Below the pieces are notes generated by a model. The model searched no databases and had not been told where the DNA came from. It saw only the letters and a program-made list of their open reading frames with translations. Of a DNA stretch of 64,000 nt, positions 4,233-64,000 are shown in pieces (the first letter of the stretch is position 1; every line of letters begins with the position of its first letter). The DNA lies in contig CBEUCJ010000003.1 of the NCBI GenBank assembly GCA_965541615.1, forward strand, positions 32,186-96,185, read 5' to 3'. The stretch is from an uncultured bacterium (lineage in GTDB: Bacteria > Omnitrophota > Gorgyraeia > Duberdicusellales > CBEUCJ01). Made by a program: the position numbers and the translations under genes.

Positions 4233-4237
4233 CTTAT

Positions 4238-5506: not shown

Positions 5507-5508
5507 TT

Positions 5509-7049: not shown

Positions 7050-7116
7050 TCTCTAACCTCCTCTTTTAAAACTATGATATTTTTATTATTCCATTTAAAT
7101 ATACCACAAAAAAACA

Positions 7117-7524
7117 TCATCTTAAAGGATGAGTGCCTCCAAATTTTCCAGTCTCATTTATGCTAATAACATAACCTGCATATTCACTTTCACCTATTCT
7201 TTCAGCCTCTGCTAAAAAACTTTTGTCATCAGCATAAACTATAGTATATTTCCAGTCTTCATCGCCCAAAATTTTTTCATTTAATTCAGGAACCTCTTGT
7301 GCCAATTCTTCAAAATCATCTGTATAGGTATCATATATTGAAAAGTACATACTTTCAGCTTTTTTAATAAGATTTAACTTAACTTTTGCAGAGGTAACTT
7401 TTGTTCTCTCTAAGAATTTCTTATATTGAGGTAAAGCTATACTTATTAATATTACAATAGCTACAATTACAATTACTAATTCAATAAGAGTGAAACTTCT
7501 TTTTTTAAAAGAAAATAAATTCAT
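7117..7524 (-). CDS. Type IV pilin (candidate major subunit, paralog of 6657..7049)
   Basis: KKRSFTLIELVIVIVAIVILISIALPQY. C-terminus GKFGGTHPLR. It is the first pilin gene after the platform gene. Confidence 0.7.
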   Translation of the reverse strand: MNLFSFKKRSFTLIELVIVIVAIVILISIALPQYKKFLERTKVTSAKVKLNLIKKAESMYFSIYDTYTDDFEELAQEVPELNEKILGDEDWKYTIVYADDKSFLAEAERIGESEYAGYVISINETGKFGGTHPLR

Positions 7525-8735: not shown

Positions 8736-8746
8736 AATTTAAAATT

Positions 8747-11928: not shown

Positions 11929-12287
11929 TTTTCAGCCTCCTTCTTAACAGGAAATATATAGATTCTTCTCTTATACATAATACTTACACCTTCTTTATTT
12001 ATATCTATTATTTTACCTCCTTGTATTTCATCTCCAATCTTATACAGTTGACCATCTATAATTGCACAAGGGAGCGTAGTATTCCAAACTACACCTTCCA
12101 CTTCTATTTCAAAATCTACTTTTTCTGCTCCATATTCTTCCTCCCCTTTGCTTTCTTCTTCATTTAAACTCGGCTCTATCTTTTTAGGAATACAATCTAC
12201 AAAAGGATCTATAACCTTTTTATCTTGTTTAGCATACCCTGTCAAAACAAACATTACTATAAAACTACCTAACCAAAAACATTTCAT
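11925..12287 (-). CDS. PilP/MshK-like small periplasmic pilus-assembly protein
   Basis: Signal peptide. C-terminal beta-domain pattern AIIDGQLYKIGDEIQGGKIIDINKEGVSIMY resembles the PilP C-domain. Sits between the PilO-like gene and the secretin. Confidence 0.4.
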   Translation of the reverse strand: MKCFWLGSFIVMFVLTGYAKQDKKVIDPFVDCIPKKIEPSLNEEESKGEEEYGAEKVDFEIEVEGVVWNTTLPCAIIDGQLYKIGDEIQGGKIIDINKEGVSIMYKRRIYIFPVKKEAEK

Positions 12288-12805
12288 CTTTTGAGTAGTT
12301 CCTTTTTAAATCTAATGGTGGACAATTTTAAATTCACATCTAAAAATGGTCCTTCTGTCTTACTAAGTAATAATTGATCTACATTTATATAAAAATTATA
12401 ATTTTCCAACGTTTCTAAAAATTTAATTAACTCAAAAAAACTAGCTTTTAAATTTACAATCAAACCAATCTTCTCAAAAAATTCATCTTTAGGAAAAGTA
12501 CCCCCTGGAGTAATAAAGGAAGTTCTAATTTGAGGATATTTTTTTAGAATTGAAATGATCATCTCAAGCATATTCTGTGCATCTTGAATAGAAAAATAAG
12601 AGCCTTGAAGATTTAATTCTCTTCTAATTTTCTTTAGCTCTTTTAACAAAAATTTTTTTTCTTCATTTTTTTCTATTTCATCCTCAATCTCGCTTATTCT
12701 CTTTTCAAAAAATACATTTATAAATTTTGTTATAGGATAAACACATCCCAAAATAAAAATTGAAATGATTATATCCTTTCTTTTAAAAATATACTTCATC
12801 TGCAT
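12284..12805 (-). CDS. PilO/MshJ-like bitopic membrane protein
   Basis: Single N-terminal TM, coiled-coil, then a small domain. Lies between the PilM-N fusion and the PilP-like gene, as in T4P operons. Confidence 0.4.
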   Translation of the reverse strand: MQMKYIFKRKDIIISIFILGCVYPITKFINVFFEKRISEIEDEIEKNEEKKFLLKELKKIRRELNLQGSYFSIQDAQNMLEMIISILKKYPQIRTSFITPGGTFPKDEFFEKIGLIVNLKASFFELIKFLETLENYNFYINVDQLLLSKTEGPFLDVNLKLSTIRFKKELLKR

Positions 12806-14250
12806 TCTATTTTAAAGCTAGTAACTCTATAACCTTTATATACTCCTTCTGAAATCTCTTTAAGAATTATCTTATCAAAATAATTAAAAAAATTTTTTCT
12901 TATATTACTTACAAATTTTTTTATTGAATCCATCCGCTCAGATTCCTCTTTAGCATAAGAAAATCCTTCCAAAAAAAGAACACTTCCTTTTTCTTCCTGC
13001 CATACTAAAGATAACCTCTCAATCCAAACACCTTGAGGAAGATTTTTAGAAAGTGCTTTTAAAATCGTGGAAAAAAATTTTTTAGAAGACTTAAAGTATT
13101 CAAATTGAGCTAATATCTTTTTAAACTTTACTTTATCTGACCTTAATTCCTCTATGCTCTTCAAAGCTCTTATTCCCTCTCTTAAAAGACGTCTCTTTAC
13201 TATCTTTAGCTGATTCTTTTTTTCTTTAAATTTGTTAAACTTACCTATAAAGTTAAAACCTGCAATTAAGAAAAAAATAAATGAAGATAAAATAATATAC
13301 TCTTTTCTAAAAGGAATTTCTTTGGATACTTCTACTTTCTTTTCTTCTTTTATCGAAACATTAAAGGAAATTAAAGTTCTAAGAGGGGAAGGTAAAGTAA
13401 CACTATAAGATTTTAATTCTTCTATACTAAATCTCTCACTAAAAATTTTTTCTTCACCTATAAAGTATAAAGGTAAATCAAATTCTTTATTCAACTCTTC
13501 AAAGTAATTTTTATACTTTTCTTTACCAATAAATAATAAACTTTGAACTACTTCTCCTTTATAACGTCTTTGATAGTACTCTAAAGACAATCTTAATTCC
13601 TCAGTAAATCTTTTTAGATCTTCTTTTCTTGAAATCTTAACATCTCTAAAGATACAAGGAAAATGATTACTCAACATTAAAAAACTTGCCTCTTCATCAT
13701 CTATAACTATTACTCCATAAGTCTTTAATCTCTGCATCATCTTTTCTTTCCTAAGATAAAGCAGTCTCCAAAAAGAAACAATAGCTGGTTCTATCTTCAT
13801 CAAATTTAAGTCGAACTGTTTAATCCCTTCTTTAATCTTAGAAAAATCTTTTTTATTCACTCCTACAAAGCACACTTCTGATGTTTTTTCTTTTTTAAAG
13901 ACTCTAAATTTAAAATCCCATAGTAAATCTTCCAATTTGAAAGGTAATCTTCTCTCAGCTTCAAAAGGGAGTGCTTGGATTACTTCCTTTTTAGAAAGAA
14001 AAGGGAATTCAAAGAATCTTATAAGTATAAATTGAGAAGAGAGAGAAAGATATAGTAAAACCTTCTCTCTAACTCTAAATTCTTCTAAAGCTCTCTGAAT
14101 GCAAATATTAAGAAAAGCTGAAAAATCAAGATATTCTTTTGGATTATATTTAAAATTTAATGTATCTTCGATAACATCATTTCTTACTTTACATAAATAG
14201 ACATTGTTATTTGCACTTATATACAAACCTATTTTAATACCTTTTTTCAT
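12796..14250 (-). CDS. PilM-PilN fusion (MshI-like) pilus assembly protein
   Basis: 484 aa. Actin-like N-domain (KIGLYISANNNVYLCKV start). Internal TM (YIILSSFIFFLIAGFNFI) followed by a PilN-like C-part. First gene of the cluster. Confidence 0.55.
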   Translation of the reverse strand: MKKGIKIGLYISANNNVYLCKVRNDVIEDTLNFKYNPKEYLDFSAFLNICIQRALEEFRVREKVLLYLSLSSQFILIRFFEFPFLSKKEVIQALPFEAERRLPFKLEDLLWDFKFRVFKKEKTSEVCFVGVNKKDFSKIKEGIKQFDLNLMKIEPAIVSFWRLLYLRKEKMMQRLKTYGVIVIDDEEASFLMLSNHFPCIFRDVKISRKEDLKRFTEELRLSLEYYQRRYKGEVVQSLLFIGKEKYKNYFEELNKEFDLPLYFIGEEKIFSERFSIEELKSYSVTLPSPLRTLISFNVSIKEEKKVEVSKEIPFRKEYIILSSFIFFLIAGFNFIGKFNKFKEKKNQLKIVKRRLLREGIRALKSIEELRSDKVKFKKILAQFEYFKSSKKFFSTILKALSKNLPQGVWIERLSLVWQEEKGSVLFLEGFSYAKEESERMDSIKKFVSNIRKNFFNYFDKIILKEISEGVYKGYRVTSFKIECR

Positions 14251-41377: not shown

Positions 41378-42199
41378 TCAACAAGAGAGTGTATTTATTA
41401 CTTCTTTTATAAAATCTTTATCTACTTCTAAAAACTTTATTCCTAAAAAATATTCTCCTTTATCGAGCATATTGCATCTTACAACTTGAGCTTTAGCTAT
41501 ATATTCAGAATTTTTAAAAAAGAACTTCACAGAAAGTTCTATTCCTGGAGGGAGGAATACAAAAGTTTTAACTCCCATTCCTTTCCCACTTTGGGATATG
41601 TCACATACAGTAGCTGAAATAGGAGCAGAAGAAATTAGTCTTATCCTGCTATCAGTAACCTTTATTTCTACAGGAAGATTTGCCTGTAACCTCTCTGACT
41701 CTCTACAAAAAATAAAATTAGATTTAGAAGAATAAGAATGAGTTAAGTACTCTTCCAAATTATACAACTCATCTTCTGGTCCAAAAAAATTATCTATTGC
41801 TTTTAAGATAGTTGTTGGTAAAGAAAATAGAGGAAAAACTTCTAATTCTGTTTTTACCTTTAGTTCTTTTATAAGATCAGCTTTTAAAGGATTAGCCATA
41901 GCTATAAAAAGAGTATTATCTACTTTAAAAAGTGGCACTAATAGATTTTCTCTATAAAATTCTTCAGAGAACAAACTCATTAATTCAGGATTAAGTTTGT
42001 AATCTGAAAGTCTTACTAAAGGAATCTGTGTCTGTTGGGCAAAGAAAGTATAGATATCTTCTTCAGTTAAATACCCTAACTTTATAAGTGTAGAAAATAA
42101 TGATTTTTTTATTTTTTTTTGTTCTTCTTTAGCTCTTAAAAGCTGTTCTAAAGTAAGATGAGTTTGTCTTAACAACCTTTCCTCTAAATCTTTTCTCAT
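41378..42199 (-). CDS. MshEN-like (T2SSE_N) domain fused to C-terminal PilZ domain; putative dual c-di-GMP receptor
   Basis: N-terminus DLEERLLRQTHLTLEQLLRAKEEQ-KKIKK-SLFSTLIKLGYLTEEDIYTFFAQQ (24+5+24 architecture). C-terminus RESER...DISQSGKGMG plus GIKF (PilZ RxxxR, DxSxxG). 4-nt overlap with the receiver gene. Confidence 0.55.
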   Translation of the reverse strand: MRKDLEERLLRQTHLTLEQLLRAKEEQKKIKKSLFSTLIKLGYLTEEDIYTFFAQQTQIPLVRLSDYKLNPELMSLFSEEFYRENLLVPLFKVDNTLFIAMANPLKADLIKELKVKTELEVFPLFSLPTTILKAIDNFFGPEDELYNLEEYLTHSYSSKSNFIFCRESERLQANLPVEIKVTDSRIRLISSAPISATVCDISQSGKGMGVKTFVFLPPGIELSVKFFFKNSEYIAKAQVVRCNMLDKGEYFLGIKFLEVDKDFIKEVINTLSC

Positions 42200-42753
42200 T
42201 TTTCTCCTTTTGGAGAAGAATATTTTCTCACAAATTGTGTAATTATCTCACAAATTTTTTTCTCATCTAACTTCACAGAAGTATTAGAAACAATATCAGG
42301 ATACTTTTCTTTAAGATCTCTTATCCACTCAGCTTGCTGACGAGCTATTTGTAATAAGAGTCTATTTTCTTTTAAAACTCTGTAGTAATCGAAAGCATGT
42401 TTTAAAAGAATCTTTAATTCTTCTGGATCTATAGGTTTTGTTATGTAACGCCAAATGTGAGCTTTGTTTATTGCCTCCATTGCACTGTTCAAATCTGGAT
42501 ACCCAGTAACGAGTATTCTAATGGTATCTGGATAGCGCATCTTTACTTTTAAAAGAAAATCTATTCCAGAGATTCCTGGTAAACGTTGATCACATAATAC
42601 TACCTCTACTTCTCCCTTTTCTTGTAATATCTGCCATGCTTTCTCAGCATTTTCTGCAGTAAAAATCTCTCTTTCTTCAGAAGCTAAAAGCCTTTTTAGA
42701 GAAGTGAGAATATGGGGTTCATCATCTACAATTAAAATAGTGTGTTTAGACAT
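42196..42753 (-). CDS. Response regulator receiver protein with ~60-aa C-terminal extension, no recognisable output domain
   Basis: ILIVDDEPH. LCDQRLPG phospho-Asp. LVTGY. ITKP. Confidence 0.8.
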   Translation of the reverse strand: MSKHTILIVDDEPHILTSLKRLLASEEREIFTAENAEKAWQILQEKGEVEVVLCDQRLPGISGIDFLLKVKMRYPDTIRILVTGYPDLNSAMEAINKAHIWRYITKPIDPEELKILLKHAFDYYRVLKENRLLLQIARQQAEWIRDLKEKYPDIVSNTSVKLDEKKICEIITQFVRKYSSPKGEK

Positions 42754-42771
42754 AATCTTCCTCCTCTAATA

Positions 42772-42972
42772 CTACTTTTTATGACTTAAATCTAAAAGAC
42801 TTAACGCAATACTAAAAAGCAAACACATTACTGAAAATCTCAAAATTCCAGTTGTAGTAATCCCCCAAAAGATTTTCTTTATCTCCAAAAGTCTTAATAC
42901 TACTCCTACCATAAAACTTACAAAAGCTATAGCTATAAACAAATCATCTCCTAATCTGTACATATTCTTCAT
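42772..42972 (-). CDS. Small two-TM membrane protein (paralog B)
   Basis: 66 aa. Ends ...LLFSIALSLLDLSHKK, about 45% identical to 43371..43574. SD-like ggaggtg 6 nt upstream. Confidence 0.4.
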   Translation of the reverse strand: MKNMYRLGDDLFIAIAFVSFMVGVVLRLLEIKKIFWGITTTGILRFSVMCLLFSIALSLLDLSHKK

Positions 42973-43003
42973 CTTTTACACCTCCTTTTTATTACAACAA
43001 ATC

Positions 43004-43366
43004 TCATATTTTAATAACTTTTCTTTCTTTATTTTTACTAATAAGTTCTTTAAAAAGAGAAGGGTAAACTTTAATAAATCTTATACCCATTCCTGAAGGT
43101 AAATGCTCTCCTTCATTATAATTTAATTGAGTTTCCAGTCTTCTCCAAACGACTACTCCTTGAATGTACACTTCCATTTCAGGTTCGTTTAATTTAAAAA
43201 GTAACTCCACTGGTGTGTTAGGAGGATCTGTTTTATTTGTAACCACAAAAGCACCTTGAGATGAAATATCTTTTACCTTTGCAAGTTGCCATATTCTTTT
43301 ACTTCTATATTCTACAGGAATTTTTAAAGGTATCCTTTCAAATTTTCTTTTATCTTTCATATTCAT
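43004..43366 (-). CDS. PilZ domain protein
   Basis: RKFERIP. DISSQGAFV. GMGIRF. Confidence 0.7.
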   Translation of the reverse strand: MNMKDKRKFERIPLKIPVEYRSKRIWQLAKVKDISSQGAFVVTNKTDPPNTPVELLFKLNEPEMEVYIQGVVVWRRLETQLNYNEGEHLPSGMGIRFIKVYPSLFKELISKNKERKVIKI

Positions 43367-43370
43367 TCAT

Positions 43371-43574
43371 TCATTCTTTTTTACTTAAATCCAATAAACT
43401 TAAAGAGATGCTAAAAAGTAAACATATCAAAGATAATCCTAAAAGTTCATCAGGGGTGATTTTCATAGAAGTCATTGCTTTTATTCCCCATAGTTTTGTT
43501 ATCCCCCCTATTACAAAGCTTATGAAAGCAAATATTACAAACAAATCTCCTCCTAAATTATAATTCTCTTTCAT
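43371..43574 (-). CDS. Small two-TM membrane protein (paralog A)
   Basis: 67 aa. ...LLFSISLSLLDLSKKE. SD ggaggtg upstream. Overlaps the HK stop. Confidence 0.4.
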   Translation of the reverse strand: MKENYNLGGDLFVIFAFISFVIGGITKLWGIKAMTSMKITPDELLGLSLICLLFSISLSLLDLSKKE

Positions 43575-44364
43575 AACTCACCTCCTTTTTAGGTAACACT
43601 ACTGTAAATGTAGCTCCCTTTCTATCTCTGTTTTCTACATCTATTCTTCCTTTATATTTTTTTATAATATCTCTACTTACATACAATCCTAAGCCTGTCT
43701 TTCCTTTCGTAGTAAAGAAGGGATCAAATATCTTTGGTATGATCTTTGGGTCTACTCCTCTTCCTGTATCTGAAATCTTTATATATAAATTTTCATCATC
43801 TTCAAAAGTAGAGATTTCTATTAATCCTCTACCATTCTCTATTGCCTCTGAAGCATTAAGAATTATGTTTAAAAACACTTGACCTAACTCAGTAGAATCT
43901 ACCCATATTTTGTCCTTAGCTTTATAATCTTTTATAATGTCTGCTTTATGCTTAATCTCATTCCACACTGCTCTTATTACACTATCTAAAAGCGTATTAA
44001 CATCTACTAAGGTCTTTTTTCCTCTTGCGCAGTGAGAGAAAAGGAGAAAATCTTGAACTACTCTCCTAATCCTGTAAGCTCCATTTAAACATTCTTCTAA
44101 GATTAAAGGTGCTTCTTCTAATCTTTGTCTTTGCTCAAGATAGCTTAAGAGGAGTTTCAAATTAACGATTAGATAACTTAAAGGATTATTTATCTCATGA
44201 GCTACACCTGCACATAAAGTCTTTAAAGAATTCATTTTTTCTTTATGAATATCATAAGCCTTTCTTTCTCTTTCACTTTTACTCTTTTTTTTATAGAGAA
44301 AGTAAAAGATGACAGCTATTAATGAGAAAGAAATAAAGAATATTAACACCATCTCATTTTGCAT
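43558..44364 (-). CDS. Sensor histidine kinase, minimal (one TM, no periplasmic/cytoplasmic sensor domain)
   Basis: H-box LCAGVAHEINNPL. N, G1, G2 boxes (DTGRGV, GLGL). Confidence 0.8.
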   Translation of the reverse strand: MQNEMVLIFFISFSLIAVIFYFLYKKKSKSERERKAYDIHKEKMNSLKTLCAGVAHEINNPLSYLIVNLKLLLSYLEQRQRLEEAPLILEECLNGAYRIRRVVQDFLLFSHCARGKKTLVDVNTLLDSVIRAVWNEIKHKADIIKDYKAKDKIWVDSTELGQVFLNIILNASEAIENGRGLIEISTFEDDENLYIKISDTGRGVDPKIIPKIFDPFFTTKGKTGLGLYVSRDIIKKYKGRIDVENRDRKGATFTVVLPKKEVSYEREL

Positions 44365-45619
44365 GCTTTACTACAGATATTAAATTCCATAAAGGTAAAA
44401 ATATCGCCAAAGCCATACCCATAACTACAACTCCCAAGACTGCTGTCATAATTGGCTCAATTAAAGAAGTTAAATTTCTTATCGTAGCTCTTACCTCTAA
44501 AGAATAATATTCACATAAAGAATCTAACATAGTAGGTAAAGCTCCTGTCTTTTCTCCAATTGAGATCATGTATCCTACTAATCTAGGAAATAACCTGCTA
44601 CCTAAAACACCTCCAGCTATTCCTTTTCCATCAGCTACATCTTTTTTAATATTCTCTATATCTTTAGATAAAATTACATTTCCAATCGTAGTCTTTACAA
44701 TGTTAAGAATAGTTAAAATAGGTAAACCTGCCTGATACAGGACATTTAACATAGATGCAAATCTTAACATTACTATTTTATTATAGATCTTACCAAATAT
44801 TGGCATCTTAAATTTTAAATTATCCCAGTACCATCTTCCTTTAGATGTATTTATTAAAAATCTAAATCCACTATAAAAAATAAATCCCATTACAAAAAGT
44901 ATTAAGTACCACGAAAATTTTAAAAAAACATTTCTACTCTCTCTCCATGGTCCTAATAAAAAGTTACTCACAGCTATCATTATTCTGGTAGGTAGAGGTA
45001 AACTCACTTTAAAACCTTGATAGATTCTAACAAAAGGAGGAACCACAAATACACTGAGCACAAATAAAGCTACAAAAAGAGCTATTATTACCATAATAGG
45101 ATACCTTAAAGCTGATTTTATTCCCATTTTAGTCTCTCTTTCTTCTTCTAAAACTTGAGCTAATCTTAACAAAACTTTATCTAAGACACCACCTGCTTCA
45201 CCTGCAACGACACTATTTACATACAATTCACTAAACACATGAGGATGCTTTGACATAGCTTCTGATAGTTTGTGTCCTTCTTCTATATCATGAATAATTT
45301 GATTAAGAGCTTCTTTTAAAACTTCATCTTCTGCTTGTTCAGTTAAAACTTTTAAACCTTCTATTATAGGAACAGCAGCTTTGACTATCGTAGCAAATTG
45401 GCGAGTAAAGACTATGAGAGCTTGGGAAGAGACTTTACGCATCCTTTTTTTAAAAAACCTCTCCCAGATAGAAGCAATATCTCTTTTGAATCCTATACTT
45501 ATTGGTGAATATCCTAACTTAGCAAGGTGGGTTGAGACTTCCAATTCATTTGCTGCTTCTAATTCTCCTTTAACGATCTTGCCTTGAGAGTCTATAGCTC
45601 TATAAATATACTTTCCCAT
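44354..45619 (-). CDS. GspF/PilC/MshG-family platform protein (second copy)
   Basis: 421 aa. Duplicated T2SSF domains, 3 TM segments. Confidence 0.85.
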   Translation of the reverse strand: MGKYIYRAIDSQGKIVKGELEAANELEVSTHLAKLGYSPISIGFKRDIASIWERFFKKRMRKVSSQALIVFTRQFATIVKAAVPIIEGLKVLTEQAEDEVLKEALNQIIHDIEEGHKLSEAMSKHPHVFSELYVNSVVAGEAGGVLDKVLLRLAQVLEEERETKMGIKSALRYPIMVIIALFVALFVLSVFVVPPFVRIYQGFKVSLPLPTRIMIAVSNFLLGPWRESRNVFLKFSWYLILFVMGFIFYSGFRFLINTSKGRWYWDNLKFKMPIFGKIYNKIVMLRFASMLNVLYQAGLPILTILNIVKTTIGNVILSKDIENIKKDVADGKGIAGGVLGSRLFPRLVGYMISIGEKTGALPTMLDSLCEYYSLEVRATIRNLTSLIEPIMTAVLGVVVMGMALAIFLPLWNLISVVKHAK

Positions 45620-45620
45620 A

Positions 45621-46463
45621 TTAACTGAGATTGAATTCTTTTATTACTGAATTTATAAATTGAGCATCTATTTTTGAGATCTTTTTAGCAAATCCTGAAA
45701 GCAGAACTAAATCACAAAGAGTGTTTATTTTTCTAGGGATGCCTCCTGTATGGTTAAATATTACTTTAATAGCTTCAGAATCAAAAACTGGTTCTAAAGA
45801 ACCTTGAGCTGGATTCTCAAGTCTGGCTACATTTATTCTATGTTCAATGTATTTGGCTACATCTTCTTCTGTCAAAGGTCCTAAGTGGCATCTTATAGGT
45901 ATCCTTTGAACAAAAGGTTTTATCATTTCTACTTTATCTTTGAGTTCGGGTTGACCTAATATAAGGAGGGTTAAGAGGAATCTATTTTCATTTTGAAAAT
46001 TCAAGATTAATCTCAAAGTTTCAAATATTCTCATATTCTCTATAGTATGAGCTTCATCTATAATTACCACGTTCTCCTTTCCTTCACGAATATTATCTAT
46101 GAGGATATTATATAGTTTTTCTAATAGAGGGTCAATTAAGAGCTCTGTTTTCTTTTCTGGTAAAGGTTGAGGACTTAAAAGTCTTACTATTGATCTTATA
46201 AGTTCAGAGGGCTCAGAAAACAAAGGATGGTTTATGTAAGCAGTACAGAATTTTTGAGGACCTAACTCTTTCAAAATTACTCTTGCTAAAAGTGTTTTTC
46301 CACACCCAAAAACTCCAGTAAGCATACCGCATCCCAAATTTTGAGCTATAACATAAGTAAGTTTCATTAAAGCATCTTCGTGTTGGGGAGAAAGATATAA
46401 AAATCTGGGATCTGGTGTATTTTGAAATGGCTTTTCTTTCAAACCCCAGTAACTTTCATACAT
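45621..46463 (-). CDS. ExeA/GspA/MshM-like AAA ATPase
   Basis: N-terminus MYESYWGLKEKPFQNTPDPRFLYLSPQHEDAL...GVFGCGKTLL parallels the ExeA/MshM N-terminus (FGL...PF...PDPRFLY...GxGKT). Confidence 0.65.
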   Translation of the reverse strand: MYESYWGLKEKPFQNTPDPRFLYLSPQHEDALMKLTYVIAQNLGCGMLTGVFGCGKTLLARVILKELGPQKFCTAYINHPLFSEPSELIRSIVRLLSPQPLPEKKTELLIDPLLEKLYNILIDNIREGKENVVIIDEAHTIENMRIFETLRLILNFQNENRFLLTLLILGQPELKDKVEMIKPFVQRIPIRCHLGPLTEEDVAKYIEHRINVARLENPAQGSLEPVFDSEAIKVIFNHTGGIPRKINTLCDLVLLSGFAKKISKIDAQFINSVIKEFNLS

Positions 46464-48266
46464 CTATTTTTTACTTAACCAGCGCGTGATACGAGTTTTA
46501 TACTCTTCTAACGCCTGTGTATCTATTTTGATCTCTGTAGGTTTGGTGACTTTTGTCGTTTCTTTTTGAACAGCTATGTAAGGTTTTACTTCTGTTTCTA
46601 CAGGTTTTATCTCTACCTGCTCTTCACAGACTCTGGCTACCTCTTCAAAAGTAGTCAATCCTTTTAAAACTTTTTCTCTTCCATCTTCCCACAATAACCT
46701 CATACCTTTTTCCTGAGCTTTCTTTCTCAAAACCACAGTGGAAGCTCCTTGGTTAATTAGTTCTCTGATCTCATCATCCACTACCATCAATTCAAAAATA
46801 CCTGTTCTCCCTTTGTAACCTGTTCCTTTACATTCAGCACATCCTTTACCTCTATATACAGTTATGTTACCTCTATCTTCTAACTTCCATTTTTTAAGGA
46901 CTGCTTTTGAGGGTGTGTAAGGTTCTTTACATTTAGGACAGATTAATCTCACTAATCTCTGAGCCATTACCCCTATCAAAGAAGCTGCAACTAAAAATTG
47001 TTCTACTCCCATGTCCACTAATCTGGCTACAGCTGATGGTGCGTCATTAGTATGCAAAGTAGAAAAGACCAAGTGTCCAGTTAAAGCTGCCTGCACTGCC
47101 ATACGAGCAGTTTCTAAATCTCTTATTTCACCTACCATTATTACATCTGGGTCTTGACGCAGAATAGCTCTTAAACCTGTAGCAAAAGTTATACCTGCTT
47201 TGGGATTTACTTGAACTTGTCTAATTAAACCTAATCTGTATTCTACAGGATCTTCCAATGTAATTATATTTCTTTCAGGAGTATTTATTCTCATTAAAGC
47301 TGAATATAAAGTAGTGGTCTTTCCACTTCCTGTAGGACCTGTTGAAAGTATTATTCCGTATGGCTTTTTTATCAACTCTTCAAATCTCTTCAAATCCTCA
47401 TAAGTAGTAAACCCTAATCTTTCTAAACCTATCGTCACAGAAGCAGTATCTAACAGTCTTAAGACAACATTTTCTCCATGGATTGTAGGAAGGGTTGAGA
47501 CACGAAAATCTATTAATTTATCATCTACTATTGCCTGAAAATGTCCATCTTGGGGAATTCTGGATTCAGCTATATCCATACCTGCTAAAACTTTTATTCT
47601 GGAAATAATAGCTGCCTCCCACTCTTTTGGAGGAGAAGGAATCTCATGCAAAATTCCATCTATACGAAACCTGATCCTTGTAGTTTTCTCTTCTGGTTCA
47701 ATATGAATATCTGAAGCTCTATCTCTTACTGCCTGGGCTATAATTAAATCTACAATCCTTACAATAGATGTCGTCTCACTTAAAGGTTTTCCTTCCTCTT
47801 TTGCTACTTCTAATTCTGCAAACAGATTTTCTTTCTTTTTTTGATAAATTCTATTCAAAGCATCTTCAATTTCTTGTGCAGAAGAGAAATAAACTTCGAT
47901 TGGATAGTTAGTAAAAAGTTGTATCTGATCTATTAATGAAATATCTTGAGGATCTTGCATTGCTACATGTAAAATGCCATCCTTTATAAAAAGAGGAACT
48001 GACTTTGTAGACCGAGCTAATTCTTCTGGATATATTTTTAATAGATCTTCTTCTACTTCTAAATTATCTAAATTTTTGTATTCTACTCCTAACTTTTCAG
48101 CTACAGCTTTATAGAGAACTTCTTTTTTTAATAAATGCATATCTATAATTACTCTTTCTAAAGGGCGTTTTAATTTTTTTGTTTCATCTATTGCTTTTTC
48201 TAACTCCTCAGGTGTTAATAAATTTTTATTTAAAAGTAATTCTCTTAATTCTTCTTCACTAATCAT
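46464..48266 (-). CDS. GspE/PilB/MshE-family assembly ATPase (second copy; N-domain motifs degenerate)
   Basis: GPTGSGKTT. His box STLHTND. CPKC...CAEC. N-domain LRELLLNKNLLTPEELEKAIDET keeps the hydrophobic pattern but lacks the R/G/Q positions of the MshEN consensus. Confidence 0.9.
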   Translation of the reverse strand: MISEEELRELLLNKNLLTPEELEKAIDETKKLKRPLERVIIDMHLLKKEVLYKAVAEKLGVEYKNLDNLEVEEDLLKIYPEELARSTKSVPLFIKDGILHVAMQDPQDISLIDQIQLFTNYPIEVYFSSAQEIEDALNRIYQKKKENLFAELEVAKEEGKPLSETTSIVRIVDLIIAQAVRDRASDIHIEPEEKTTRIRFRIDGILHEIPSPPKEWEAAIISRIKVLAGMDIAESRIPQDGHFQAIVDDKLIDFRVSTLPTIHGENVVLRLLDTASVTIGLERLGFTTYEDLKRFEELIKKPYGIILSTGPTGSGKTTTLYSALMRINTPERNIITLEDPVEYRLGLIRQVQVNPKAGITFATGLRAILRQDPDVIMVGEIRDLETARMAVQAALTGHLVFSTLHTNDAPSAVARLVDMGVEQFLVAASLIGVMAQRLVRLICPKCKEPYTPSKAVLKKWKLEDRGNITVYRGKGCAECKGTGYKGRTGIFELMVVDDEIRELINQGASTVVLRKKAQEKGMRLLWEDGREKVLKGLTTFEEVARVCEEQVEIKPVETEVKPYIAVQKETTKVTKPTEIKIDTQALEEYKTRITRWLSKK

Positions 48267-50458: not shown

Positions 50459-50507
50459 AATTATTTTATCTTAATCTTTTTTTAAATTCAATTTTCACAA
50501 AAGCTAT

Positions 50508-51962: not shown

Positions 51963-51997
51963 ATTACTTATTATACTAAAAATCTGTTTTTTTAAAA

Positions 51998-53092: not shown

Positions 53093-53093
53093 T

Positions 53094-54851: not shown

Positions 54852-54861
54852 CTAAATTAAT

Positions 54862-55209
54862 TCAATATTCTTCTATTTCTTTTAAATATTGTAATATAAA
54901 TAATAATATTTTTAACTCTTTTTCAACATCTAAATCCCTGAATTCTACCCCTGTAAAATAACCTGTGTTATCTGCTTTCTTTTGCCAAATGACCCTTCCT
55001 ACACATTCTATTTGAGTCTTCTCTTTATCTGGCAAATAAAATTTTAAAAGTAACAAAGTGCCTACTTTTAATTCATCTTTAGTTAAAAAGCACAATCCAT
55101 TTCTACTTATATTTTTAGTTCTACTTTTGAATACAGAATTTAAAGGAAGAATTTGATATTCTACTTCAGTACAAATATCTACTCTTAAAAACTTTCTATG
55201 GTCTTGCAT
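54862..55209 (-). CDS. PilZ domain protein
   Basis: RKFLRVDI. NISRNGLCF. GVEF. Confidence 0.65.
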   Translation of the reverse strand: MQDHRKFLRVDICTEVEYQILPLNSVFKSRTKNISRNGLCFLTKDELKVGTLLLLKFYLPDKEKTQIECVGRVIWQKKADNTGYFTGVEFRDLDVEKELKILLFILQYLKEIEEY

Positions 55210-58250: not shown

Positions 58251-58664
58251 TCAGAAAATTTTTAAAAAATCTATGTCTTTTAAATACTTTAAAATCTCTT
58301 TTTTATCTACTTTAAAAAAATGTGTCTTACATTTGCAATCTGAAGAACCAAATTTTTCTTTTACTACCTTTAATCTTAAATCTTTTAGAAATTTTCTAGA
58401 GATCTCACATTCAGTATTTTTGCTTACCCAAACGTTCTCTATCTCAAATTCTTTTAAAGAAGTTATAAAATCTATATGCCAAAATTTTCTTTTATTTTTT
58501 AAAAAATGCCTTTGTACTCTCTTAAATAATTTATTTAAAGGTGCAGAACCTACATACACATAGTATCCTTTTTTAAAATTTATTTTACCTAATTTTCCCA
58601 CACTGAGTTTTATATCTCTTTTGCATCTTATTAATAGTAAATAAGAATTCTTTTTATCTTTCAT
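58251..58664 (-). CDS. GIY-YIG-like nuclease superfamily protein (DUF123-like)
   Basis: YLLLIR...GYYVYVGSA...RVQRH matches the DUF123/GIY-YIG pattern as I recall it. Confidence 0.45.
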   Translation of the reverse strand: MKDKKNSYLLLIRCKRDIKLSVGKLGKINFKKGYYVYVGSAPLNKLFKRVQRHFLKNKRKFWHIDFITSLKEFEIENVWVSKNTECEISRKFLKDLRLKVVKEKFGSSDCKCKTHFFKVDKKEILKYLKDIDFLKIF

Positions 58665-58671
58665 TTCAATC

Positions 58672-58743
58672 TGGAGCTGGGGGGACTTGAACCCCCGACC
58701 TCTTCTTTGCGAAAGAAGCGCTCTCCCCCTGAGCTACAGCCCC
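58672..58743 (-). tRNA. tRNA-Ala (anticodon CGC)
   Basis: Revcomp: GGGGCTGTAGCTCAGGGGGAGAGCGCTTCTTTCGCAAAGAAGAGGTCGGGGGTTCAAGTCCCCCCAGCTCCA. Cloverleaf with 7-bp acceptor including the G3:U70 Ala identity pair, anticodon loop TTCGCAA, TTCAAGT T-loop, discriminator A. CCA is not encoded. Confidence 0.85.
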
Positions 58744-58750
58744 TTCTAAT

Positions 58751-59971
58751 TTAAAGATAAATAGTATCTGAAGAGTTAAACAAAGATAAAAATAAGAGCA
58801 TGTAGTCTTGTATGTGTCTTGTTATAAGAAAATTATTTTTTACATGTCTTTTCCCATTTTTACCTAACCTCTTTGCATATTCAGGTTCATGGATTAATTG
58901 TTTTATCCAGTAAGCAGTCCCTTCTATAGTGTAAGTTAGTATTCCTGAGTATTTGTGAGCGATCTGTAAAGGAATACCTCCTACAGCTGAAGCTATTACG
59001 GGTTTTTCTTTCCATAAAGCTTCTGTAACTGTCAAACCAAAGCCTTCCTTTAAAGATTTCTGCAAAATTATAGTTGAGGCTCTTTGTAAAGCATTTATCT
59101 CTAAATGACTGTTAGGAGGTAAAAATAATACAAAAATATCTTTATCAGAAGCTGCTTCTGACATTACATCCTCTAAAACTTTCTTTCCTTCTGGATCGTC
59201 AGCTGCTCCTCCACCAGCTAAAACTAATTGACAATCTATATATTTTTTAACTAATCTATAAGCTTTTATTACTCCTATTGGGTCTTTTAAATAATCGAAC
59301 CTTGAAATCTGAGTGATTATTGGTTTTTCTTTATCTATACCAAATCTTCTTAAAACAGAGTCTATAAAATCTGGACTTAACTCTTTATTCTTATCACTGA
59401 GAGGATCTATTGAAGGAGAAATTAATACTTGTCTGATAGAAAGCTTTCTTGCAAAGCGTGGAGCTGAAAACACAGATGCATCATATTTTTCTATAAAATT
59501 TTTTAAAAATAACCATATATCTTTTTTAGGAGTAGAAAAATCTACATGGCACCTCCATATCCATTTATTTTTAAACTTCCTTTTCTTTCTCACCAAAGCT
59601 ATGGGTTGAGGATCATGGATAAAAACGATATCCTGAGTTTTGCTAAGGAGCTTTTCATTCTTTTCATTTATCTCTATAAAGTATTCTAATTCTTCTTTGG
59701 TCAAAACTACATCTACTCCATGTAGACCATTATGGATTTTTTTAGTAATCTCAAAGAACTTTTTATCACCCCAAATTACATCCCATCTTACTTTTAAACC
59801 CAAATCTTGCATTAAGGGGACTATAGCTGAAAGCATTTCAGCTACTCCCCCACCATAACTCGTAGAGTTAATGTTTTGGATGCTAACATGTTTTAATTTC
59901 TCAGCTAACATATATAATTCATCTATAACTTCATCTCCTACTATTTTACGATACTCATCTATTTTTCTCAT
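58751..59971 (-). CDS. treT: GT4 trehalose glycosyltransferring synthase-like protein
   Basis: NSTSYGGGVAEMLSAIVPLMQDLGLKVRWDVI parallels the archaeal/Thermotogae TreT N-terminus (NSTSFGGGVAEIL...). 406 aa. Confidence 0.6.
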   Translation of the reverse strand: MRKIDEYRKIVGDEVIDELYMLAEKLKHVSIQNINSTSYGGGVAEMLSAIVPLMQDLGLKVRWDVIWGDKKFFEITKKIHNGLHGVDVVLTKEELEYFIEINEKNEKLLSKTQDIVFIHDPQPIALVRKKRKFKNKWIWRCHVDFSTPKKDIWLFLKNFIEKYDASVFSAPRFARKLSIRQVLISPSIDPLSDKNKELSPDFIDSVLRRFGIDKEKPIITQISRFDYLKDPIGVIKAYRLVKKYIDCQLVLAGGGAADDPEGKKVLEDVMSEAASDKDIFVLFLPPNSHLEINALQRASTIILQKSLKEGFGLTVTEALWKEKPVIASAVGGIPLQIAHKYSGILTYTIEGTAYWIKQLIHEPEYAKRLGKNGKRHVKNNFLITRHIQDYMLLFLSLFNSSDTIYL

Positions 59972-60612
59972 TTTCTATTAATCTCCTCTTCTATTAGACT
60001 GATTATCTTTTTCCTTAAACCTTCTAAAGTGTATGTATAAGGGTCTAATCTAGAGATTTTATTTGCCAACTCAGCATAACCTGAATCTCTTAACCAACAA
60101 GAAAAATCATTATCTGGTTTTTTTAATCTTAATCTAGCTTCAAACATATGAAAATAAACTGAATGTATGGTCACTTTTTTTAAACACTCACAGAACTCTT
60201 TTAAATTTTTGGCTACAAAAGGAGTTGGAAGTATGAATATTCTAGAAGATAGAAATCTGAATTCTTCTCCTGGAATACAGTTTCTTAAAACAGTTGCAGA
60301 ACTAACATACTCTTCTAAAATTTCAATAAATCTTTTTCTCAAATCTTCTATATCATGAAATTGAATAATATCTACACTAGCTATTCTTTCTCCTAAAGCT
60401 TTTAATCCTAAGTTATTTGTGATCCAATATGAAAAATCATTTGGGTATTCTGGAGAAAAGTACCTATGTTGCTCTAGATACCTGTGAGTATGATGATAGA
60501 TGCTTGAAGAAGGAATTTTTTTTATTCCTTCTAATAACTCTTTAACGTTCTTGGCGCTGATACCTAAAAGTTCTACTTGAGTTATTCTGGTATAAAAATA
60601 AAATGGTTCCAT
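59968..60612 (-). CDS. Hypothetical protein made of two ~105-aa internal repeats
   Basis: NDFSYWITNNLGLKALGERIASVD...EDLRKRFIEILEE versus NDFSCWLRDSGYAELANKISRLD...EGLRKKIISLIEE. Confidence 0.4.
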   Translation of the reverse strand: MEPFYFYTRITQVELLGISAKNVKELLEGIKKIPSSSIYHHTHRYLEQHRYFSPEYPNDFSYWITNNLGLKALGERIASVDIIQFHDIEDLRKRFIEILEEYVSSATVLRNCIPGEEFRFLSSRIFILPTPFVAKNLKEFCECLKKVTIHSVYFHMFEARLRLKKPDNDFSCWLRDSGYAELANKISRLDPYTYTLEGLRKKIISLIEEEINRK

Positions 60613-60618
60613 CTTTCT

Positions 60619-61404
60619 CTAAGACTTTAATTCTAATAAAAATGATAAAAATTTTTTCAACTCTGTAGGACTTTTTAAAAAGTAATCTGCACTAGAATCT
60701 TTCTTTTTTCTACCTATCCTGATTCCTATATCTCTTTTTTTTAATTTAGAAAAAACTTCTTCATCTGTCAAATCATCTCCTGCATAGATAGTTATATCTT
60801 TTTTATTTTTTTTAAAAAGACCTTCAAAAAATCTCAAAGCCAGAAACTTATTGAAAACTACATCTGGTCTAATCTCAATCACTTTCTTTCCTCTACCTAA
60901 TTTTAAATGTACATTTTTATTAACGTATTCAGAAAGGATTTGTTTAACTATCCTTTTTAAATAAGAAACTTTATTTTGTGCAACATTTCTATAGTGAATA
61001 GCTAAAATTACTCTTTTATTTTCTAAAATTACTCCTTTAATATTTTTTAATTTTTTTTCTATTCTTTTTTCTATATCTTTCAATATTTTTTGATAAAATT
61101 TGAAAGATAACCCTTTTAAAAGAGAGAGCTTTTTCTTATCATAGATTTCTAAACCATGATTTCCTGCGTATAAAATATTATCAAGTCCTACTCTTTTTTT
61201 TAAATCTTTAATAGTCCTTCCACTGATTATTCCTAAAATAAAATTTTTATTTTTTGAAATTTTTTTTAAGAGTTTTTTTGTAGAATTATCTAAATAAACT
61301 TTATAAGGAGTTTTAATAATAGGAGTTAACGTTCCATCAAAATCTAAGAATAAAAAAATTCTATTTGCTTTTTTTAGTTTACTTTTAAGCGTCTCAAAAT
61401 TCAC
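60619..61404 (-). CDS. otsB: Trehalose-6-phosphate phosphatase (HAD family)
   Basis: FLFLDFDGTLTPI. YAGDDLTDEEVF. Confidence 0.75.
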   Translation of the reverse strand: MNFETLKSKLKKANRIFLFLDFDGTLTPIIKTPYKVYLDNSTKKLLKKISKNKNFILGIISGRTIKDLKKRVGLDNILYAGNHGLEIYDKKKLSLLKGLSFKFYQKILKDIEKRIEKKLKNIKGVILENKRVILAIHYRNVAQNKVSYLKRIVKQILSEYVNKNVHLKLGRGKKVIEIRPDVVFNKFLALRFFEGLFKKNKKDITIYAGDDLTDEEVFSKLKKRDIGIRIGRKKKDSSADYFLKSPTELKKFLSFLLELKS

Positions 61405-61411
61405 TTATTTT

Positions 61412-62881
61412 TTAGATTTTAGGAATATCCGTAATTATCTTTCCTATCCATTTCCAAATATTATTCCTGTGGACTACCTGTCTTAACTTACGCATCTTTT
61501 CTTTTATCTGCTCTTCTTGCATAAATAAGGCTTTATAAATACTTTGAGCTGTCTCTTCTTCAGAATAAGGGTTTATAAGCAAAGCATCTTTTAATTCTCT
61601 TGAAGCACCTGTAAACTTACTTAAGATCAAAACTCCTAAGTTATCGAATCTTGCAGAAACAAATTCTTTTGCTACCAGATTCATACCATCGTGAAGAGAA
61701 GTAACCAAACAAACATCAGCTAACCTATAAAAGGCTAATAACTCTTTAAAAGAGAGGTGTCTCCTCACAAAAATTATAGGTCTCCATGAACCTTGAGAAT
61801 GTTTGAAATTTACTTCTTCTACTAAAAGATTTATCTCATCATTTAACCTTTTATATTGAGGAATATGTATCCTTGAAATTTCACCCATCTGAACAAAGAC
61901 TACTTTTTCTTTAAGCTCTGGATGCAAATCTAAAAGTCTATCTATAGCTGAAATCCTTTCTAATATTCCTTTTGTATAGTCTATCCTATCTAAACCTATT
62001 ATTACCTTATAATTTGAAAGATTATACTCAGATTTTAGACTTTGTATCTTCTCACAAATCTCAGGGCTCTTTGCTTGCTTTTCTATACCCTCAAAATCTA
62101 CGCTTATAGGATAAGCTCTTACAAAAGTTGTATGATCTTTAAAAGTCACTGAAAAATTCTCCTTATTTATTTTGGCTTCCAATTCATTGGCCACAGCTTC
62201 TAAAAAATTATTACAAAAATATCTTATCTGAAAACCTAACAGATCGTAAGAAAGTAGAGCTTCTAAAATCTGCTGCTTTTGAGGCAGGATCCTAAAGATA
62301 TCATAAGTAGGCCAAGGTATATGCCAAAATAAGAGAGTAATAGCTTGTGGATATAATTCTTTTAAATATTTACTCACCAAAATCAAATGATAATCTTGCA
62401 CAAATACCACAGCTTTTTTTCCTTTTATCTCTTCAAAAATAGCTTGAGCAAATTTTCTATTCACATCTTTATAGACTCTCCAATACTCTTCCTTAAAAAC
62501 AGGTCTCACAAAAGCTAAATGAAACAACGGCCATAAACTTTGATTAGAAAATCCAAAATAATATCCTAAATTCTCTTCTTTGGTAAGCCAGACATACTTT
62601 AAAGTATAAGTAGGGTTTTCTGGAGGGACCTTTACTTTAGAATCTTTGGCAACTATTCTATCAGCATCTCCTACTCCACATGAAATCCATAAACCACCTA
62701 ACTCTTGCATAACAGGATCTAAAGCTGATACTACACCTCCTGGTCCTCTTACACACTCAATCTTTCCTTTTATTAACTTATGGATATAAGGTTGGCGATT
62801 AGAGACTACTACGAATTGACAGTTTGATAGTTTTTCCTTTACTATCTCTAAAACTGTCTTTTTGCTCCAAACTTTAAACAC
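61412..62881 (-). CDS. otsA: Alpha,alpha-trehalose-phosphate synthase (GT20)
   Basis: VVVSNRQPY. SLWPLFH. VQDYHL. Confidence 0.85.
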   Translation of the reverse strand: MFKVWSKKTVLEIVKEKLSNCQFVVVSNRQPYIHKLIKGKIECVRGPGGVVSALDPVMQELGGLWISCGVGDADRIVAKDSKVKVPPENPTYTLKYVWLTKEENLGYYFGFSNQSLWPLFHLAFVRPVFKEEYWRVYKDVNRKFAQAIFEEIKGKKAVVFVQDYHLILVSKYLKELYPQAITLLFWHIPWPTYDIFRILPQKQQILEALLSYDLLGFQIRYFCNNFLEAVANELEAKINKENFSVTFKDHTTFVRAYPISVDFEGIEKQAKSPEICEKIQSLKSEYNLSNYKVIIGLDRIDYTKGILERISAIDRLLDLHPELKEKVVFVQMGEISRIHIPQYKRLNDEINLLVEEVNFKHSQGSWRPIIFVRRHLSFKELLAFYRLADVCLVTSLHDGMNLVAKEFVSARFDNLGVLILSKFTGASRELKDALLINPYSEEETAQSIYKALFMQEEQIKEKMRKLRQVVHRNNIWKWIGKIITDIPKI

Positions 62882-62887
62882 AATTTT

Positions 62888-64000
62888 TTAAAGAAATTTA
62901 AAGTACACAGAGAGTGTATCTTTTGTTAATCTCTCTTTTGTGTATTGAGATTCAACTATTTGCCTACCTGTGTAACCTAATCTTTCTCTCAAAACATTAT
63001 CCTCTAAAAGAAGATTGATCTTTTCTGCCAAAGCTTCAAAATCTCTCGCAGGAATAACGAATCCATTGATCCCATCTTTTATCACCTCTGGCATACCTCC
63101 TACATTGGTAACTATCACAGGTTTTTTCATAGCCATCGATTCTAACATAACTAAACCAAATGGTTCACTTAAAGTAGAAGGATAAATGCAGACTTTAGCT
63201 ACTTCATAAAGTTGTCTTACCTCTTCTATGGTATAAACATCTATTAAAATATTTTTTTCTAATTTGAAATGCTTTACTAAATTTACTAAGTAAGCAATAT
63301 CTTTTTGTTGGGTTTCTCCCCAATCTATTATATTTTTAGAACCTGCCAGAACCAACAACACATCTGGATACTTTTTTCTCACCAAATTTATTGCTTTAAT
63401 ACTTACATCGCATCCTTTAGCCAAACCAATCCTTGCTGGATGAAAAACTACTGGTCTATTTTTGAGCTGAGGATATTTTTTAAATATGTGAGTAGTATCT
63501 ACTCCGGGTTTAAATTGCTCTTGATCTACTCCGTGATGGATTACAGTGATTCTTTTATCATCTATTCCTGCTCCTATTAACTCCTTTTTTATAAAATGAC
63601 TAACAGCTATTATATGAGTCCATTTTATTTTATGGGTAAGTTCTAAAAACAAAAGATCATCCCATACATTATGTGCAGTAAGAATTAAAGGAACCCCTCT
63701 TTTTTTAGCTAAATTCTCTATAGCTTTTGCATGGATTTCACTGAAATAATGCATATTATGGACATGGAGTATATGAGGTTGGGTCTTCTTTATAAATTCA
63801 GAAAAAATTTTCAATACTTCATCCTCTAAACCTTCTAATCCTCTCCTGTAAAGCCAATTCAAATCCATCAAAGGTGTTCTATAAATTTGGACTCCTTTGT
63901 AGTTGTATCTATCCTCTACTCCTTCTGCAGAACATGTCAATAAACTCACTCTATGCCCAAATTTTACAAGTTGAGGTAAAAGTATGGTTAAATGGGTCTC
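62888..64000 (-). CDS. GT4 glycosyltransferase, N-terminus beyond window end
   Basis: EPFGLVMLESMA (EX7E). The tool start at 63949 is GTG. The frame stays open through 64000 (...ETHLTILLPQLVKFGHRVSLLT), which looks like a GT4 N-terminus, so the true start lies outside the window. Confidence 0.7.
   Translation of the reverse strand, partial: ETHLTILLPQLVKFGHRVSLLTCSAEGVEDRYNYKGVQIYRTPLMDLNWLYRRGLEGLEDEVLKIFSEFIKKTQPHILHVHNMHYFSEIHAKAIENLAKKRGVPLILTAHNVWDDLLFLELTHKIKWTHIIAVSHFIKKELIGAGIDDKRITVIHHGVDQEQFKPGVDTTHIFKKYPQLKNRPVVFHPARIGLAKGCDVSIKAINLVRKKYPDVLLVLAGSKNIIDWGETQQKDIAYLVNLVKHFKLEKNILIDVYTIEEVRQLYEVAKVCIYPSTLSEPFGLVMLESMAMKKPVIVTNVGGMPEVIKDGINGFVIPARDFEALAEKINLLLEDNVLRERLGYTGRQIVESQYTKERLTKDTLSVYFKFL

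Follow-up and report, generated by a model that had tools for sequence, protein, structure and literature searches.

Why would a bacterium keep two small, related membrane-protein genes at the signalling end of a type IV pilus operon? The question is raised by a 64,000-nucleotide (64-kb) stretch of contig CBEUCJ010000003.1, from an uncultured member of the Omnitrophota. The whole stretch is referred to here as the window (29% G+C), and a preliminary description, made from its letters alone, had pointed out two open reading frames (ORFs) of 66 and 67 amino acids (aa) on either side of a PilZ gene. That description is confirmed: both ORFs are present on the minus strand, which carries all genes of the region, and they are called here small1 (43371..43574, 67 aa) and small2 (42772..42972, 66 aa). 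It is close to certain that they are real, conserved genes linked to pilus clusters. Taken as a whole, the explanation that we favour, with a probability a little short of even, is that their family forms an Omnitrophota-specific accessory inner-membrane component of a type IV pilus machine resembling the mannose-sensitive haemagglutinin (MSHA) pilus. The genes of the operon, in order of transcription and with the Shine-Dalgarno sites of the two small genes, are as follows (nt, nucleotides).

46464..48266, minus strand: assembly ATPase of the MshE/PilB type with an MshEN domain (domain search)
45621..46463, minus strand: AAA_22 ATPase of the ExeA/MshM type (Pfam and NCBIfam)
44354..45619, minus strand: T2SSF (PilC/MshG-type) inner-membrane platform protein (Pfam T2SSF 6e-55; synteny)
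43558..44364, minus strand: histidine kinase (HK), 268 aa (Pfam HisKA, HATPase_c)
43579..43585, minus strand: Shine-Dalgarno GGAGGTG of small1, 4 nt before its ATG (sequence)
43371..43574, minus strand: small1, 67 aa, predicted two-helix membrane hairpin, divergent paralog with a GGD variant of the N-terminal motif (ORF, family profile)
43004..43366, minus strand: stand-alone PilZ protein, 120 aa (Pfam PilZ E=1.6e-12)
42979..42985, minus strand: Shine-Dalgarno GGAGGTG of small2, 6 nt before its ATG (sequence)
42772..42972, minus strand: small2, 66 aa, predicted two-helix membrane hairpin, paralog near the family consensus (ORF, family profile)
42196..42753, minus strand: response regulator (RR), 185 aa (Pfam and NCBIfam)
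41378..42199, minus strand: two-domain MshEN + PilZ protein, 273 aa, closing the operon (Pfam MshEN 7.5e-17, PilZ 4.3e-9)

The paralogy first proposed for small1 and small2 is borne out by 52% identity over their full length, 34 invariant columns and a common LLFSI(A/S)LSLLDLS block, and BLASTP aligns the two across the N-terminal 32 residues with E=6e-10. A profile of the family recovers small2 (E=1e-36) and small1 (E=4e-30) from the window, and a full-sensitivity profile search of the six-frame translation found no other member of the family there with a value better than E=0.1. The pair had been called tandemly duplicated, which makes the duplication seem more recent than it is. Orthologs from other genomes share 65-71% identity with small2, against 52% for small1, and synonymous sites between the two genes are saturated (synonymous divergence, dS, ~1.5), so a recent tandem duplication was rejected. 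Each gene has its own perfect GGAGGTG Shine-Dalgarno site, a 7-mer that occurs 12 times in the window against 1.6 occurrences expected. Judged by their sequence, these ribosome-binding sites are probably among the strongest of the window, and since both genes carry such rare perfect sites, their translation may be high relative to that of the neighbouring genes. The start of small1 overlaps the kinase stop by 17 nt, as first described. A consensus scan of the minus strand for internal promoters and terminators near the small genes stayed at background level, and an Rfam scan of the window returned a single tRNA elsewhere and nothing more.

When 5.8 billion proteins were searched by a word index with a two-sequence profile, the result was 121 clusters at 90% identity, all of 52-105 aa and all sharing the same motifs, and every cluster bearing an organism name belongs to Candidatus Omnitrophota. 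An exhaustive profile search of 1.84 billion proteins gave 53 representatives at E<1e-3, of 39-75 aa, with 0 fused to another domain. No Pfam or NCBIfam model matched small1, small2 or the 47 family members scanned at threshold. The two proteins thus appear to be members of an undescribed protein family found so far in Omnitrophota only. Membership was defined from the family alignment (A3) as a protein of ~63-80 aa with the pattern M-K-x-x-Y-x-x-G-[DG]-D-x-F ... A-F-x-[ST]-F ... C-L-L-F-S-I-[AS]-L-S-L-x-[DE], and both small1 and small2 carry every invariant residue. The invariant or near-invariant positions are Y5, G8 (91% conserved), D10, F12, A16, F17, F20, C50, L51-L52-F53-S54-I55, L57-S58-L59 and D/E61. 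A protein identical to small1 (P0001) is present in public collections, and the remark that such genes are easily missed by annotation needs to be qualified: both ORFs are called by public gene callers, which give them no name or the label "hypothetical". Six loci with the same operon and small protein as in Omnitrophota (L006, L009, L010, L012, L016 and L017) are labelled "uncultured Planctomycetia/Planctomycetales", and these labels are probably wrong or outdated.

Purifying selection was measured by the Nei-Gojobori method as the ratio of nonsynonymous to synonymous divergence (dN/dS) between the window and a sister species (GCA_053996315.1, locus L018), whose operon has the identical order kinase-small1-PilZ-small2-RR-MshEN/PilZ. 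The ratio is 0.035 for small2, which retains 91% amino-acid identity at a dS of ~1.4, and 0.23 for small1, compared with 0.06 for MshE, 0.05 for AAA_22, 0.075 for T2SSF, 0.245 for the kinase and 0.22 for PilZ. Both small genes are under purifying selection, small2 under a constraint equal to that of the core machine genes and small1 evolving about as fast as the kinase and PilZ do. Coding selection is thus clear, and on these ratios, together with conservation over ~85 related loci, the possibility that the two genes are non-coding or shadow ORFs was rejected. An origin as a fragment or fission product was likewise rejected, as the membrane helices of the T2SSF protein and of the kinase have no similarity to them in a full-sensitivity profile search of the window. 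On the opposite strand, a 100-aa ORF (43261..43563, plus strand) antisense to PilZ and small1 is unsupported and appears to be a shadow ORF of the AT-rich DNA. The PilZ proteins of the window and of L018 are only 60% identical, and their C-terminus is variable, since the L018 gene (7604-8017) is called at 137 aa and overlaps the small2 start by 17 nt, whereas the window gene (43004..43366) encodes 120 aa and ends 31 nt ahead of small2.

The two transmembrane helices attributed to each protein are supported by prediction. An AlphaFold2 model of small2 built from 47 family sequences is a helical hairpin with helices at residues 2-28 and 40-64 (mean predicted local distance difference test score 79), and the family hydropathy profile of the 47 members has charge-free hydrophobic stretches at 11-26 and 43-60. 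This places the proteins in the class of two-helix transmembrane hairpins. Both ends of the hairpin may lie in the cytoplasm, an orientation weakly favoured because basic residues are commoner at the termini (~3.2 lysine plus arginine residues at the two termini versus 1.85 in the loop). Helix 2 (CLLFSIALSL), within the membrane, is the most conserved part of the protein, and the connecting loop is the most variable. Spacings of the small-x-x-x-small type, which favour tight helix-helix packing in membrane proteins, are found in both helices (S19...G23 and S54...S58), and the conserved acidic residues D10 and D/E61, which border the hydrophobic stretches, are both placed at one end of the hairpin. 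The best match in a profile search of the sequences of solved structures was RsbS at E=1.4, which is not meaningful.

Which neighbours the family retains was examined at ~85 related loci, gathered by exact-protein look-ups, by scans of representative genomes and metagenomes, and by look-ups anchored on the MshEN-PilZ protein, and annotated by searching the proteins of the window and of locus L001 against six-frame ORFs. The test proposed in the preliminary description, for homologs and conserved synteny in related genomes, came out positive. The arrangements are listed below, with counts given as distinct small-protein sequences (E, MshE ATPase; M, AAA_22; F, T2SSF; Z, PilZ; ENZ, MshEN-PilZ; s, small gene).

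E-(M)-F-HK-s-Z-RR-ENZ: 16 distinct examples, the commonest arrangement
F-s-RR-ENZ: 4 distinct examples
F-s-ENZ: at least 3 distinct examples
HK-(Z)-RR-s-ENZ: 4 distinct examples
F-s-Z-ENZ: 1-2 distinct examples
T2SSF-PilM/N-PilO-s-CheR-CheY-CheA..., in a different pilus cluster: 6 distinct examples

In MshE-type operons, the small gene follows T2SSF, or a kinase trailing T2SSF, and lies ahead of MshEN-PilZ, and the kinase, PilZ and response regulator genes are each variably present. The small gene keeps all its conserved residues in every context, including operons that lack the kinase, PilZ or the response regulator, and at least 13 distinct small sequences come from operons in which no kinase gene is next to the small gene (F-s-RR-ENZ, 4; F-s-ENZ, at least 3; PilO-s-CheR, 6). 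Both cluster types can occur together, as an MshE-type operon (L013) and a PilO-s-CheR cluster (L001/L011) lie 32 kb apart on the same contig. The residual contexts, in which pilus or signalling genes are again present, are a T2SSG pseudopilin gene followed by genes for REC-HK and REC-GAF-HD-GYP proteins, TPR-s-ParA-like-PilM, and TPR-s...CheY-CheA. Six operons were found via MshEN-PilZ rather than via the small protein, and 4 of them contain the small gene, one in two copies; the other two, L082 and L081, lack it.

Homologs, synteny and coding selection together confirm that the pair are genuine, conserved small membrane-protein genes inside a signalling operon. The idea that they specifically anchor or modulate the kinase or the stand-alone PilZ protein cannot be upheld in the form proposed, for the small gene persists without either. 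Since operons without the kinase, without PilZ or without the response regulator still have an intact small gene, the core function of the family cannot depend on any of them. Common to nearly all contexts is a small gene right after T2SSF or PilO and right before cytoplasmic signalling genes, which may be a kinase and response regulator, PilZ, MshEN-PilZ or a Che system. The common denominator is the inner-membrane machinery of a type IV pilus followed by a signalling module, and not the kinase or PilZ per se. It is this shared position, together with the independence of the core function from the kinase, PilZ and the response regulator, that favours an accessory subunit of the pilus platform. 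The extreme conservation of helix 2, the constraint on small2 comparable to that of core genes, and the strong ribosome-binding sites would fit a stoichiometric structural partner.

Such a subunit could be inserted as a hairpin with both ends in the cytoplasm and pack through the near-invariant helix 2 (CLLFSIALSL, with its S-x-x-x-S spacing) and the S/G motif of helix 1, either against another copy of itself or against the membrane helices of T2SSF or PilM/N/O. Its conserved acidic and aromatic cytoplasmic face, composed of Y5, G8 and D10 near the N-terminus and D/E61 near the C-terminus, is a plausible dock that would hold cytoplasmic signalling proteins at the machine. The docked proteins might be the kinase, PilZ and MshEN-PilZ, or the Che system in the second cluster type. 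Tethering of this kind is plausible because the small gene sits at the junction between platform and signalling genes. In genomes with two copies, hetero-oligomers might form. A fuller version of this scheme, in which the family is a previously unrecognised, Omnitrophota-specific platform subunit that docks the kinase, PilZ and MshEN-PilZ at a hub in the membrane and physically couples the pilus to signalling by cyclic di-GMP (c-di-GMP), two-component systems or chemosensory systems, and in which duplication gave rise to hetero-oligomeric hubs with kinase-facing and platform-facing copies (small1 and small2, respectively), is possible but doubtful.

Duplication within operons is recurrent; at least three arrangements have two copies per operon.

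HK-s-Z-s-RR: found in the window and in the sister species (L018)
HK-s-s-Z: found in four distinct loci, one of them L084
HK-s-RR-s-ENZ: found in two loci

The window small1 lies on a long branch away from small2 in a neighbour-joining tree, and the paired copies of HK-s-s-Z and HK-s-RR-s-ENZ group by lineage, which indicates that the duplications in these two arrangements were probably independent. Recurrent duplication within the operon is compatible with an oligomerising subunit able to diversify into hetero-oligomers.

Several observations weigh against an accessory platform subunit. A divergent 71-aa subgroup (P0117, L020/L021) lies beside unrelated housekeeping genes for translation and tRNA modification. 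An MshE-T2SSF-MshEN/PilZ operon (L082, 5748-7831) has no family member in the ~10 kb examined of its 13-kb contig, and only 24 nt separate its T2SSF and MshEN-PilZ genes, with no recognisable small gene between them, so the association with these operons is not obligatory. Locus L081 (2899-7828) also has MshEN-PilZ and no recognisable small gene, an absence that is uncertain in a frameshift-ridden assembly. A profile search of the second T2SSF/T2SSE/secretin cluster of the window (~7521..14250) found no family member, so the small protein is not a general T2SSF partner. The topology depends on a weak positive-inside bias, the tree is built on ~66 positions and is poorly resolved, and the physical partner, the oligomerisation and the tethering role are, like the topology, inferred.

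The strongest competitor, though an unlikely one, is that the small protein is an accessory or co-sensor subunit of the kinase, its hairpin binding the single membrane helix of the kinase and setting its activity. The kinase was fairly described as sensor-less, because its lone N-terminal hydrophobic segment leads straight into HisKA and HATPase_c and Pfam finds no sensor domain; its best NCBIfam match is T2SS_HK, below the cut-off of that model. The commonest arrangement, kinase-small-PilZ-RR with 16 distinct sequences, also suits a kinase partner. However, all conserved residues are kept in T2SSF-small-RR-ENZ, T2SSF-small-ENZ and PilO-small-CheR, and in HK-(Z)-RR-small-ENZ the small gene stands apart from the kinase, directly before MshEN-PilZ. 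The strict co-occurrence with a kinase that marks kinase-dependent small modulators is therefore not seen in this family. For small1 in particular the kinase-modulator model is viable, because the 17-nt overlap couples its translation to that of the kinase in the window and its dN/dS nearly equals that of the kinase; small1 could be a kinase-specialised copy.

Somewhat less probable again is a dedicated membrane anchor of soluble c-di-GMP receptors (PilZ and/or MshEN-PilZ) that is independent of the pilus platform. Receptor domains are numerous in the operon. The stand-alone PilZ protein has the RxxxR (RKFER) and DxSxxG (DISSQG) motifs of c-di-GMP-binding PilZ domains, and the MshEN+PilZ protein, a predicted soluble c-di-GMP receptor, has two putative c-di-GMP-binding modules, with RESER and DISQSG in its PilZ half. 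Its family comprises 48 clusters of ~270 aa, almost always encoded last in the pilus operon; the sole named members are Omnitrophota, and the stand-alone MshEN+PilZ architecture appears restricted to this phylum, as the small family is so far. In all MshE-type operons that have a small gene and a visible 3' side, MshEN-PilZ is located downstream of that gene, and the minimal arrangement is T2SSF-small-MshEN/PilZ. An anchor is nevertheless difficult to reconcile with the PilO-small-CheR loci and other contexts that have no adjacent MshEN-PilZ, or with L082, where T2SSF is followed directly by MshEN-PilZ. In addition, the most conserved part of the protein is intramembrane and not cytoplasmic, which points to a membrane partner.

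It is improbable that the family functions outside pili and signalling, perhaps in membrane stress or as a transport accessory, and merely travels with these operons. The divergent subgroup beside translation and tRNA-modification genes would suit such a function, as would similarity, sub-threshold throughout, to the membrane families DUF2721, DUF3561 and YiaAB, but the pilus linkage survives many rearrangements of the neighbouring genes and recurs in two pilus cluster types, in tightly packed or overlapping operons. Least probable of all is a prepilin-like substrate with a short basic leader cut at G8 by prepilin peptidase to yield a minor pilus or pseudopilus component: the N-terminus M-K-x-x-Y-x-x-G with its hydrophobic helix superficially resembles a class III signal peptide, but Pfam and NCBIfam scans found no N_methyl motif, G8 is followed by D/G-D-L-F-I with no Glu at +5, and a second conserved membrane helix and a charged C-terminus form a hairpin where (pre)pilins and pseudopilins, recognised by a G|F/M-T-L-x-E methylation motif and a single N-terminal helix, have a periplasmic globular domain.

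The upstream part of the wider cluster continues as follows.

48259-48900, minus strand: TPR protein
48884-50458, minus strand: coiled-coil protein
50508-51962, minus strand: secretin
51998-52471, minus strand: 157-aa protein
52472-53092, minus strand: PilO
53094-54851, minus strand: PilM-PilN fusion
54862-55209, minus strand: further PilZ gene
55292-56233, minus strand: 313-aa protein of unknown function
56297-58239, minus strand: four pseudopilin-like genes

From 41378 to 58239, the genes form a type IV pilus cluster of the MSHA-like kind, in whose signalling tail c-di-GMP receptor domains abound. Such clusters were defined genomically by a T2SSE ATPase with MshEN, an ExeA/MshM-like ATPase, T2SSF, PilM/N/O and a secretin in the operon; small1 and small2 are components of one, and the same core is present in related loci. 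The PilZ gene at 54862..55209 (minus strand), between the pseudopilin genes and the PilM-PilN fusion, is the third PilZ-domain gene, and the cluster encodes four PilZ or MshEN proteins besides the MshEN domain of the ATPase itself. The response regulator (42196..42753) has a receiver domain and a ~70-aa tail in which no output domain is recognised. In NCBIfam it is matched best by NosR-type HD-GYP phosphodiesterase regulators, over their N-terminal 156 residues, and it looks like such a regulator minus the catalytic domain.

Upstream of the cluster, at 58251..63949 (minus strand), the genes are unrelated to it: one for DUF123, one for a tRNA (58672..58743) and a block related to trehalose, which encodes a TreT-like glycosyltransferase, DUF5752, a trehalose-phosphatase, a family-20 glycosyltransferase of the trehalose-6-phosphate synthase type and a further GT4 glycosyltransferase. 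Downstream of the operon the window has arginine biosynthesis genes instead of the block conserved in several other Omnitrophota (L002, 10922-15171; L080, 8764-12983; L084, 7182-9182), which encodes a DUF8575 protein of ~668 aa and 1-2 extra secretin-like genes, at times with a small MerR-type gene first. The second cluster of the window, of the type II secretion or type IV pilus kind (3678..14250, minus strand), contains T2SSF (7521-8735), T2SSE with MshEN (8747-10450), a secretin (10447-11928) and a PilN-containing 484-aa protein (12796-14250), then a row of small ORFs. In L001/L011 (JAAEQW010000111.1; L001, 8220-15953), the second pilus cluster type runs directly into a chemosensory operon with CheR, CheY, CheA, CheD, CheB and CheC, a gene with a ComFB domain and one for PilZ; according to a recent description, ComFB is a receptor family for cyclic dinucleotides (c-di-NMP) (PMC12448109).

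Omnitrophota are uncultivated, mostly ultra-small bacteria thought to be predators or parasites, in which type IVa pili are near-universal and have been proposed to serve host attachment (PMC10066038). Papers on the phylum do not mention PilZ, c-di-GMP or the small protein (PMC10066038; bioRxiv 10.64898/2026.06.07.730766). If the favoured reading is true, a conserved, phylum-specific small protein between the pilus platform and a c-di-GMP/two-component module would offer a new handle on pilus control in Omnitrophota and would join the few small membrane proteins known to form part of large envelope machines. The family of ~120 clusters, now labelled "hypothetical" and with no Pfam or NCBIfam model, deserves a family definition. 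Its reach is modest, as the lineage is narrow and function and mechanism are inferred.

The small-protein family goes with a form of the type IV pilus, a known machine, that is specific to its lineage. Its general shape of two hydrophobic helices is in common with DUF2721, DUF3561 and YiaAB, but membership in these families was rejected. DUF2721 matches 25 of the 47 members at best with E=4e-4, and the best values among the 47 for DUF3561 (E=9e-3) and YiaAB (E=1.5e-3) are equally sub-threshold; small2 scores 16.5 bits against DUF3561, whose cut-off is 25, small1 has no match, and similarity between hydrophobic helices may be compositional. The best structural match in the Protein Data Bank is the similarly long hairpin of GldL, from the GldLM motor of gliding and type IX secretion (TM-score 0.54-0.65), but it is not significant (Foldseek E=0.43-1.1, identity 14-15%), and any short helical hairpin would match it. 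Small membrane modulators of kinases, such as MgrB with PhoQ, MzrA with EnvZ and SafA with PhoQ, are single-pass and kinase-dependent. The present family resembles them in that a small membrane protein is encoded near a kinase, with one copy here translationally coupled to a sensor-less kinase; unlike them, it forms a two-helix hairpin, persists without a kinase and is unrelated in sequence.

The window cluster resembles MSHA in its MshE-type ATPase with MshEN, MshM-like AAA_22 ATPase, TPR protein, PilM/N fusion, PilO and secretin. A query of a plasmid collection with the MshM-like ATPase, aimed at MshF, matched an Aeromonas ExeA locus and a Photobacterium exopolysaccharide cluster rather than MSHA clusters. 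In Vibrio MSHA operons, the platform gene mshG is immediately followed by the gene for MshF, a small protein whose function is unknown. This gene comes last in the mshI-mshF assembly operon (PMC4624765), and MshF is counted, with MshM and MshQ, among the MSHA-specific components whose function is unknown (PMC9815625). The small gene of the simplest Omnitrophota operons likewise stands directly after the MshG-type platform gene, a likeness that is positional only. Control by c-di-GMP is established for MshE through MshEN and for PilB through PilZ-FimX (PMC7096442, PMC4624772, PMC8389850), and the parts consulted of the papers on these systems mention no small two-helix membrane component. Like these c-di-GMP-controlled MSHA and type IVa pili, the operon studied here joins an MshEN-bearing ATPase with PilZ and MshEN-PilZ proteins, and the known regulation frames its probable logic.

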